From positions 64,001-128,000 of the forward strand of contig JBCCHT010000009.1 in the NCBI GenBank assembly GCA_039028615.1: a DNA stretch of 64,000 nt, given 5' to 3'. Origin of the DNA: Myxococcota bacterium. Lineage in GTDB: Bacteria > Myxococcota_A > Polyangia > Nannocystales > Nannocystaceae. The position numbers were made by a program. Position 1 is the first letter of the stretch, and the number at the start of each line of letters is the position of its first letter. Of this stretch, positions 28,401 through 31,400 are shown in pieces.

Positions 28401-31400
28401 GTGCTGGCCTGGTCGAGCGCACGCCCGGCCGCGCCGGGGACCGCCTGCACCACCACCGTGTAGCGCTGCTTGGCCGCGTGCCCTTCGGTGAGCCGCAGGG
28501 TGACGCTGTTGCCCGCTTCGATCCGCGTGCCGCCGTCGCCCGAGGGAAGGATGTCGAGGCCCCCGGGCGCGCTCAGTCGCACCTCGCGTTGGCCCTGCAT
28601 CAGCCCCACCGTGATCTGCGGCTCGCCGCGACGGTTGAAGTGGAACTGGTTGCTGTACAGCAGATCGATCCGCGCCGACAGGCTCAGGTCGGAGGCCCCG
28701 GCCCAGCGGGGCGCCCACAGGTGTGTGGCGTTCACGGTGAGCCCGGCACCCAAGCCCTGCAGGAGGCGGCGTCGTGAGCAGCGAGCGGGCGGAATCCGGG
28801 CCATGACGCCACATAGGCGCACCTCGTGGACAATCCCAAGTTTTTGGCGGATCGACGTTCCGAACCACGCCGCTGCGGCTCAGCGCTCGGACCGAGGCGC
28901 CGGCCACTGCGGCCCACGCAGCGCGAGCCGGGGCCGGTTGCGGGTGATGTACTGGAGGTTCTGCAGGTTGATCACGAAGTGGGCCGCTACCGCGGCGCCG
29001 AGGTTGCCCGTGGCCAGCGTCATCGCGCCGAAGCCCGCGCCCATCACCAGGGCGCTGACCGTCCAGGGCCACAGCGAGAGGCGAGGGGGGATGTGCAGCA
29101 GCGCGAACACGAGGCTGCTGACCCACAGGCCCCAGGCGTCGAGCATGGCCCCGCGAAACAGCAGCTCCTCGGCCAGCGCCGAGGTGGCGGCGAGCAGGAA
29201 CAGCTCGCCCGAGCTGGGGCGCCCGAAGATGGAGGAGAACTCGCGGTGCAGCTCGCCCAGCCAGACCATCCGACCCTGCAGGGCGCGGAAGATCTGCACT
29301 GTGATGAGGCCCACGACCACGCCCACCAGCGGGGTCCAGGCGAGGGTCGGGAGATCTTGGCCGTGGTCGAGCCGCCAGATGTCGTTCGTGTCCTGGCTGA
29401 TGCCGTGCCAGAAGAACGCCACCAGCAGCACACCGCCGTAGAACGTGGCCACGGTTCGGGCGCGCGCCGGGGCTGGCTTCGGCGACATGGCCTGGTGGGC
29501 CCGCACGGCGCCAGGATACCGCATGGCGTGGGGACGGCCCCGCCAAAACGAGCAAGGCCCGAATCGCGGTTGCGACTCGGGCCTTGGTGCGAAGGGAGGG
29601 ACTCGAACCCTCACAGGTGTTACCCCACCAGATCCTTAGTCTGGCGCGTCTACCAGTTCCGCCACCTTCGCGTGGGGACGGGTGAGCTATCACGGCCGCC
29701 CGGTGGACACAACCCCCGGCGGCAAGAATTTGCGCGACAACCGCCGGGGTGAAGAGGGCTCGATCTACTTGTTCAGCTCGAGGGTCTCGCCGACCTGGTG
29801 GAGCTTGAGCAGGTTGACCGAGGTGCCCTTCTTGATGGGGTGGGCGTAGGTGATGACGATCCGGGCGCCCCGCTCGAGGAAGCCACGACGCACGATCGCT
29901 TGGTCGAGGTCGATGAAGATCGTGTCGTCGTCGCCCGACGTCGCGAACAGGATCGGCGTGACGCCCCAATAAAGCGCGAGCGCCTGGTAGGTCGAGGCGT
30001 TCGGCGTGAACGCGTAGATGGGCACCCGCGGTCGGTACTCGGACACGAGCCGCGAGATCCCACCCGAGCCGGTGTACGTGACGATGGCCTTGGTGCCGGT
30101 CCAGCTCCGGGCCGCGCTCACGGCCGCGCGCGCGATGGCGTTGGTGGTGTGGCCGAGCGCGAGATCGTCCTGGCCGCGGTCCCACGAGCGAGGCGCTCGC
30201 TCGGTGCTGCGGATGATCTTGTCCATGGTCTGGACGACGCGGACCGGGTGCACGCCCGTGGCCGTCTCGCCCGAGAGCATCACCGTGTCGCTGCCGTCGA
30301 GCACCGCGTTGGCGACGTCCGAGGCCTCGGCGCGAGTCGGCCGGGAGTTGCGGATCATCGAGTCGAGCATCTGCGTGGCGGTGATGACCAGCTTGCCCCG
30401 GCTATTGGCCGTCTCGATGGCGCGCTTTTGCATGAGCGGCACGAGCTCCGGGCCCATCTCCACCCCGAGGTCACCGCGGGCGACCATGATGCCCTCGGCG
30501 ATCTCGACGATCGCGGCGAGGTTCTCGACGGCCTGAGGCTTCTCGATCTTCGCGACGATGGGGATCGTCCGCTCGTGCTTGCGCATTTGCTCGCGGCAGT
30601 ACTCGATGTCCTCCGGTTGGCGCACAAAGGAAAGTGCGACGGCGTCGACCCCGAGCTTGAGCGCGAACGCGAGATCCGCCTCGTCCTTCTCGGTCATCGC
30701 CGGGATCTGGAGGCTCACACCGGGGAGGTTGATGCCCTTGCGTGAGCTGAGCACGCCACCTTGGTCGACCTTGGTGGTGATGACGCTGCCCTCGGTGCCC
30801 TCGACGATCAGGTCGATGAGGCCGTCGTCGAGCAGGATGTGGTCGCCGGGGCGCACGTCCTCGACCATCTGCTTGTAGTTGGTCGTGACCCGCCAGCCGT
30901 CGTCCAGGGAGGCGGCCTCGGCGTCGGGGCTGACGTCGATCTCGACGCGTTCGTCGGGCTTCAGCGGGAAGCCGTCGCCCGGGATGGTGCCCACGCGGAT
31001 CTTGGGACCTTGGAGGTCGGCCAGGATCGCGACCGCGATACCTCGGCGGCTCGCCTCCTTGCGCACGGTCTTGTAGACGCGCGTGTGATCGTCGTGGCTA
31101 CCGTGCGACAGGTTGAGCCGAGCGGCGTTCATGCCGGCGTCGATGAGCGCGCCGATCACCTCGGGGGTGTTGCTGGCGGGACCCAGGGTGCACAGAATCT
31201 TGCAGTGTCGCGGCAGGGGTGCGGCGCTTGCCATGACCGAAGCATGGCTTCATCTGGCGCGGCGCGGGAGCCCCCCTCGTCGCTTTGTGAAGACCTACAT
31301 GCAGACCCTGGCCCGTGCGGTCCCTCGCGTGCCGGTGCGGTAACGATAGTGCAGTGTCGTTCACATCTATGTTGCCGCAGTGGACGAACGACACTCGGTA

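Follow-up and report, generated by a model that had tools for sequence, protein, structure and literature searches.

Full I34 on tRNA-Leu(AAG) has been reported in S. pyogenes, S. mutans and Oenococcus oeni (PMC11472039, PMC13249217, PMC8072771), and editing in S. pyogenes is described as complete (Wulff 2024, PMC11472039). In Lactobacillales, tRNA-Leu(IAG) excludes tRNA-Leu(GAG) and equalises the decoding of CUU and CUC; Mycoplasma and Prochlorococcus are named as further carriers of Leu(AAG) (Katanski 2026, PMC13249217). The Thr and Ser A34 tRNAs of O. oeni remain unedited (PMC8072771). A C-terminal extension of TadA has been proposed for S. pyogenes and is not known to be required. As far as their accessible text goes, published surveys report fixed A34 tRNAs other than Arg from AT-rich genera, where U-ending codons are taken to be what they serve; in the GtRNAdb survey, genera with a fixed non-Arg A34 gene are all 60-70% AT (Raval 2026, bioRxiv 10.64898/2026.05.15.725136). 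The main text of Katanski 2026 (PMC13249217), in its available part, does not mention myxobacteria, and the available text of Raval 2026 mentions neither myxobacteria nor Verrucomicrobia. Our literature search found no paper on a myxobacterial Leu(AAG); individual genomes may appear in surveys or in their figures and supplements, and the annotation itself will be present in tRNA databases.

We analyzed a window of 64,000 nucleotides from a Nannocystales genome (G000; 12.27 Mb, 68.3% GC, 96.7% complete, 94 contigs) which contains a tRNA-Leu(AAG) gene. As in Lactobacillales, this gene stands instead of Leu(GAG) and does not co-occur with it, Leu(UAG) is kept, one tadA and an Arg(ACG) gene are present and the loop fits YUAMGRA. 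G000 differs in its phylum, in its GC content of 68%, in that the tRNA serves CUC (40.7% of Leu codons) rather than mostly CUU, and in the several separate origins of the switch. Its Arg loop has G37, so that the Leu and Arg loops are one base apart and not two. TadA lacks the C-terminal extension, CUU shows no clear rise and I34 is predicted here from sequence. Compared with canonical tRNA-Arg(ICG)/TadA (E. coli; S. aureus 2B3J), the enzyme family is the same and A34 lies likewise in a C32/A38 loop that replaces a G34 tRNA, but the substrate is a type II tRNA with A35 instead of C35. In the reports as available, AAG loops are edited by E. coli TadA to a small extent (about 15%) or escape editing altogether (PMC11066159, PMC11472039). 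A genomic A34 within a four-codon box, in place of a G34 gene or next to one, is also found in the tRNAs that stay unedited (Thr and Ser of O. oeni; the engineered four-box tRNA-ANN of E. coli); our gene departs from them in its dominant C-ending codon and in a loop that converged on the TadA motif. We regard the G000 gene as a GC-rich case of the Lactobacillales-type switch, contradicting the published AT-rich-only pattern (68.3% GC against 60-70% AT). New here are its fixation in a GC-rich order, a C-ending codon as the load, repeated origins, a convergent loop, a TadA that seems not to have changed and a spread much wider than published.

The gene for tRNA-Leu(AAG) and its neighbours

The locus is composed of the following features.

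27116..28822, minus strand: SpoIID/LytB-domain gene, synteny marker (TIGR02669, 162 bits)
28880..29488, minus strand: CPBP/CAAX-type intramembrane protease gene, downstream synteny marker (weak CPBP-family matches, below cut-off)
29553..29586, minus strand: intrinsic terminator-like hairpin directly after the tRNA 3' end, 15 pairs, 10 of them G-C, U-rich tail
29585..29671, minus strand: tRNA-Leu(AAG) gene of type II, with a variable arm and an encoded CCA (ARAGORN; Rfam RF00005)
29633..29639, minus strand: anticodon loop C32 U33 A34 A35 G36 G37 A38 (from the sequence)
29765..31234, minus strand: pyruvate kinase gene (pyk), upstream synteny marker (NCBIfam TIGR01064, 530 bits)

ARAGORN called a single tRNA gene in the window, Leu(AAG). 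RF00005 scored it at 57.9 bits (gathering score 29); every stem is paired and the cloverleaf is complete, which agrees with the orthologous Leu gene with anticodon AAG described in the initial annotation. MFE folding did not recover the cloverleaf (z -1.3), as is usual for tRNAs. A34, the predicted A-to-I site, is base 29637 of the window. At the 3' end of the tRNA, one terminator-like hairpin was found against 0.1 expected in shuffles, and a search of the tRNA locus for a sigma-70-like promoter found none.

tRNA-Leu(GAG) is absent under a heavy CUC load

Whole-genome ARAGORN found the Leu anticodons AAG, UAA, CAA, UAG and CAG in G000 and no Leu(GAG); among these tRNAs, only the AAG gene has a purine at position 34. 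Rfam gave 70 tRNA matches, 69 of which coincide with ARAGORN calls while the remaining one is Phe-like with an insertion, and none of the 70 hides a Leu(GAG). When the Leu(GAG) genes of three relatives were used as BLAST queries, their best match in G000 was the AAG gene itself. The three approaches uphold the earlier statement that the genome is without tRNA-Leu(GAG). ARAGORN at a relaxed threshold made many low-quality calls, GAG included; none of them was scored by Rfam and they were rejected. All six family boxes other than Arg and Leu (Val, Ala, Pro, Thr, Ser and Gly) retain a G34 tRNA.

From our own gene calls (9,099 genes; 339,338 Leu codons), CUC makes up 40.7% and CUU 2.4% of Leu codons, close to the 40.4% and 2.9% of 360,007 codons given earlier. 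The 137,986 CUC codons represent 4.0% of all codons, occur in 99.6% of genes and outnumber CUU 17 to 1. In the ribosomal-protein operon of G000 (L432), CUU reaches 21.6% of CUY, compared to 5.5% genome-wide; this enrichment exceeds that of the U-ending codon in any other family box and is not general across AAG genomes.

Some minor observations concern the other tRNA genes of G000. The Phe(GAA)-like gene (G000:C44:99786-99920; L435:487-621) has a 61-nt insertion in the anticodon loop, scores 46.2 bits with Rfam and is called as intron-containing by ARAGORN. It lies in a stretch of 59% GC and is followed by a long hairpin; a mobile element may be the source of this tRNA, either with an intron or in decay. 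Additional, divergent tRNA genes form four arrays (C3:258280-258723, C23:6428-7170, C27:159314-172216 and C43:29499-37639). Among them are a Leu(CAG) with a short arm and another Arg(ACG), which has A37, but no Leu(GAG); the arrays probably derive from mobile elements. The tRNA-Sec is on C10.

AAG is fixed in the order and excludes GAG in the class

Our order sample holds 73 genomes of one family and 17 genera. Full-length Leu(AAG) orthologues were found in 66 of them, with the anticodon AAG in 66/66, C32 in 65/66 and G37/A38 in 66/66. A 67th orthologue, truncated by a contig end, still shows AAG, and the fixation across Nannocystales announced in the initial annotation is borne out. The remaining six genomes (72-93% complete) gave weak or no matches to the orthologue; for the three of them that are also in the class sample, neither the AAG nor the GAG pattern matched. 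In a metagenome collection, the 5' half of the order's tRNA was followed by AAG in 57 cases (55 of them Leu(AAG) by ARAGORN) and by GAG in none, which shows fixation of AAG, not editing. In one order genome (G045; L019, L068) the AAG gene is seen at the ends of two contigs; an assembly duplicate or an integration site is the probable reason.

The class survey used tRNA-anchored patterns on 251 genomes from 30 families. AAG matched in 73 genomes and GAG in 162 before clean-up, at most 159 after. The GAG-pattern matches in G001 and G051, the two genomes with both patterns, are not tRNAs, and those in G268 and G098:C5 were dropped because the anticodon stem was missing by eye. Once the non-tRNA matches are removed, none of the 251 genomes has both genes. 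The genome-by-genome exclusion claimed earlier from 121 genomes (30 AAG, 82 GAG, none with both) thus extends to the larger sample.

Incomplete assembly might have removed Leu(GAG) and left AAG as a sporadic variant, since G000 is 96.7% complete in 94 contigs, tRNA genes often go unassembled and the orthologue is missing from six order genomes. This reading is already refuted: AAG is present in every full-length orthologue, complete or near-complete genomes among them, the metagenome counts are entirely on its side and no real GAG gene occurs in any of the 73 AAG genomes of the class sample.

The switch recurs, as the initial annotation had proposed for other Polyangia families: AAG occurs in 9 of the 30 class families and is partial only in f14 (8/39) and f27 (2/10). 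In the phylum outside the class (122 genomes), at least 20 have AAG (f35 15/15, f50 3/3 and two singles).

AAG and GAG genes share one site

Comparison of 20 class loci showed that AAG and GAG genes share one pyk / CAAX-protease site. A CAAX-protease homologue adjoins Leu(GAG) in G114, G220, G252, G279 and G218, the pyruvate kinase gene adjoins it in G152, G226 and G140, and a SpoIID/LytB-domain homologue is near AAG and GAG loci alike. The same locus together with the mutual exclusion sustains the orthologous replacement of GAG by AAG put forward earlier. Relative to the order and to f27 genus g69, the orientation of the tRNA towards the pyk and CAAX-protease genes is flipped in f14, f7 and G218 (window 27116-31234; L340-L359).

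A tree of 26 concatenated S10-spc-alpha ribosomal proteins from 73 genomes requires at least six AAG/GAG changes. AAG groups on it are the order; f4; the clade f18+f21+f23+f26; f27 genus g73; and f7 with basal f14. In the best tree a GAG clade of f14 lies among AAG lineages, but a reversal to GAG is not established because monophyly of AAG remains acceptable by AU tests (p 0.18 and 0.13).

Such a pattern might also arise if AAG had spread by horizontal replacement or gene conversion instead of independent point mutations, a question of origin that leaves editing possible either way. In f14 genus g68, the AAG gene has 92% identity to that of G000 and the same acceptor stem, unlike the f14 GAG genes; the variable orientation of the tRNA between lineages also fits. 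Yet AAG and GAG genes occupy the same locus, f27 g73 and f14 g75 retain the C31-G39 pair of their GAG kin, f27 g73 retains the acceptor stem of its GAG kin too, and the tRNA bodies of f18 and f21 are distinct. We therefore consider such a spread rather unlikely and favour point mutation in place.

The anticodon loop is remodelled towards that of tRNA-Arg(ACG)

In the class, AAG genes have A38 in 73/73, C32 in 70/73 and Y32 in all. The 146 real-looking GAG genes among the matches listed have, by eye, U32 in all cases, with U38 or G38 and never A38. The earlier pairing of AAG with C32 and of GAG mostly with U32 is reproduced, and position 38 covaries too. As judged from these genes, the switch is more than a lone G-to-A change; the loop has been remodelled as well. 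The remodelled loop recurs in lineages that are apart on the tree (at least six changes) and in other phyla.

For comparison, 81 real tRNA-Arg(ACG) rows from 78 of 80 class genomes have C32/A38 in 81/81 and G37 in 68/81, in AAG and GAG genomes alike. The Leu(AAG) loop of G000 equals its main tRNA-Arg(ACG) loop (C73) at 6 of 7 bases and differs at position 35 alone. In the structure of S. aureus TadA, as the available text describes it, base 35 is solvent-exposed and makes one hydrogen bond (PMC11472039). The G000 loop, CUAAGGA, fits the consensus YUAMGRA (positions 32-38) given there for S. pyogenes TadA (PMC11472039).

TadA is apparently unchanged

The single TadA of G000 is encoded at C27:98514-99002, where the initial annotation had placed it, and it passes the NCBIfam TadA equivalog profile (177.7 bits, cut-off 150). 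The gene is intact, with HAE and PCxxC motifs, and a tRNA-Arg(ACG) is also in the genome. Against solved TadA structures the protein has 44 matches (best E-value 4e-45). It is 162 aa long and ends one residue past the aligned core. Alignment of 31 AAG-lineage and 28 GAG-lineage proteins showed no C-terminal extension in the TadA of G000 or of the AAG lineages, and no column that separates the two sets. TadA is present in 30/30 AAG and 28/30 GAG class genomes. Across phyla we found no TadA signature that tracks AAG; a motif common with S. pyogenes was rejected as a switch signature, as it occurs in GAG lineages too and is missing from Akkermansia-type TadA. The lack of a signature either tells against the model or suggests that the enzymes were permissive beforehand. 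From these alignments, TadA is apparently unchanged through the switch.

Among 58 class genomes (L195-L252), tRNA-Arg(ACG) lies at most 1.5 kb from tadA in 23/30 AAG and 19/28 GAG genomes. This linkage spans the class but is not found in G000.

Editing of A34

We propose that an ancestral tRNA-Leu(GAG) at the pyk / CAAX-protease site was changed to AAG in place, by point mutation and not by gene replacement, and that the loop shifted from U32 and U/G38 to C32 and A38. The tRNA would be expressed, and an ordinary homodimeric TadA, already editing the tRNA-Arg(ACG) loop CU-ACG-GA, would deaminate its A34 to inosine. The predicted tRNA-Leu(IAG) would read CUC and CUU, which would make the Leu(GAG) gene redundant and account for its absence. 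We put the probability of this explanation as a whole at about 80%. Its central element, I34 made by TadA on tRNA-Leu(AAG), is likewise probable, since the CUC load is heavy and the loop sequence is like that of a TadA substrate. This order of 68%-GC bacteria rests about 4% of all codons (CUC) on an A34 gene. Editing would thus be close to indispensable or, if A34 stays unedited, the tRNA would be a striking natural superwobbler.

According to the available text of work in E. coli, an unedited AAG tRNA reads CUU over CUC 87:13, and each change tried at position 32, 37 or 38 blocked TadA on the AAG tRNA (PMC11066159). If A34 were un- or mostly unedited in G000, CUC would be read by two-out-of-three decoding or superwobble, helped by a tRNA-Leu(UAG) with unmodified U34, and C32/A38 would tune ribosome binding. 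Several observations are consistent with this. An xo5U pathway was searched for and not found, so that U34 of tRNA-Leu(UAG) may be unmodified. No change in TadA tracks the switch, and AAG genes with non-TadA-type loops exist. In the literature, as far as the texts are available, four-box A34 tRNAs engineered into E. coli remain unedited on maturation, with a neutral or beneficial effect (bioRxiv 10.64898/2026.05.15.725136), and E. coli TadA failed to edit the S. pyogenes tRNA-Leu(AAG) (PMC11472039).

Contigs from RNA runs (shares 0.04-0.09) were also compared with the gene. In the four runs used, differences are visible only at least 31 letters from the contig ends, so that the short near-identical contigs do not reveal the base at position 34. 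One ambiguous small-RNA contig (X21 record 23) starts at the CCA end, reaches U33 and has two differences, one of them visible; G024 carries a genomic variant that has just two differences of this kind. The contig would then leave position 34 as A and fit an unedited tRNA, weakly.

Nevertheless, we judge an unedited A34 clearly improbable. The 87:13 preference of an unedited AAG tRNA for CUU stands against the 17 to 1 excess of CUC in G000, which has not fallen after the switch: in ribosomal-protein genes (5 genomes with <1,500 codons dropped), the CUC share of Leu codons is 43.6% in 31 AAG genomes and 40.7% in 37 GAG genomes. The Leu(UAG) gene, which would have to help, has a U32/U38 loop, and all other boxes keep their G34 readers. 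We found no CmoB, U32-peptidase or TrhO family member that might widen U34 reading and let Leu(UAG) cover CUC. Moreover, the loop converges repeatedly on the exact TadA substrate loop.

We also considered a recoding like that of Lactobacillales, for which the signals are mixed. CUU:CUC relative to control boxes is unchanged in AAG genomes (PGLS beta -0.06, p 0.65). One of three PGLS tests gives AAG genomes a higher CUY:CUR (beta 0.44, p 0.03), as a shift from CUG to CUY would, but the rise is inconsistent across six sister contrasts (3 up, 1 level, 2 down).

Occurrence beyond myxobacteria

A GTDB-wide pattern scan gave at least 120 matches, and 107 among those listed are Leu(AAG) by ARAGORN. 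By record title, and with singles from MAGs that may be misbinned, the 107 comprise 17 Lactobacillales, 31 other Bacillota, 16 Verrucomicrobiota, 7 alphaproteobacteria-type, 6 Prochlorococcus-type, 5 Cloacimonadota, 5 Actinomycetota, 3 Synergistota, 3 Planctomycetota, 2 Fermentibacteria, 2 Hydrogenedentota, 1 Sumerlaeia and 9 others. The spread of the switch is thus far wider than the myxobacterial recurrence given in the initial annotation, and its kind is already established in Lactobacillales.

In the class of an Akkermansia MAG (131 genomes, 129 with a match), 34 have AAG and 95 GAG, and none has both after three matches were set aside by eye as non-tRNA. The Leu(AAG) loop of Akkermansia MAGs and other Verrucomicrobiales (L083, L122, L125, L143, L157) is CU-AAG-GA, as in G000.

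We tentatively extend the proposal made for G000, at somewhat less than even odds, to a general one. Leu(GAG) to Leu(IAG) would be a recurrent and possibly reversible switch on the tRNA side, independent of GC and open to any bacterium with a TadA that already edits a G37 Arg loop; changes at positions 32, 34 and 38 would yield a one-base mimic of tRNA-Arg(ACG) with the enzyme unchanged. The class would have seen it at least four to five times and the rest of the phylum several times more, with further cases in about ten other phyla. If this is true, bacterial inosine-34 expansion is common and not a lactic-acid-bacterium exception, and matched sister lineages would directly test what drives the switch. 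Repeated switches beside unswitched sisters, at one syntenic site and with near-identical TadA, form matched pairs in which to ask if I34 expansion starts in the tRNA or in the enzyme. They also bear on how TadA, the parent of adenine base editors, accepts A35. One prediction is UAAG-type mRNA editing in these bacteria.

The loop is Y32/A38 in 88 of the 107 listed AAG genes and U32 with G/U38 in the other 19, which belong to Christensenellales-type Clostridia, Opitutales-type Verrucomicrobia, Nitrospirales and others.

U32-loop Leu(AAG) loci, first ten: L071, L074, L078, L085, L089, L094, L096, L097, L099, L105
U32-loop Leu(AAG) loci, remaining nine: L110, L112, L115, L124, L140, L163, L168, L189, L190

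The idea that genomes with a U32 loop lack TadA is refuted. Of 50 AAG genomes from the scan, 44 have a TadA-like gene, 17/19 with the U32 loop, often lower scoring, and 27/31 with Y32/A38. C32/A38 is thus not obligatory for AAG, and the U32-loop genes are candidates for an unedited A34 or a relaxed TadA.
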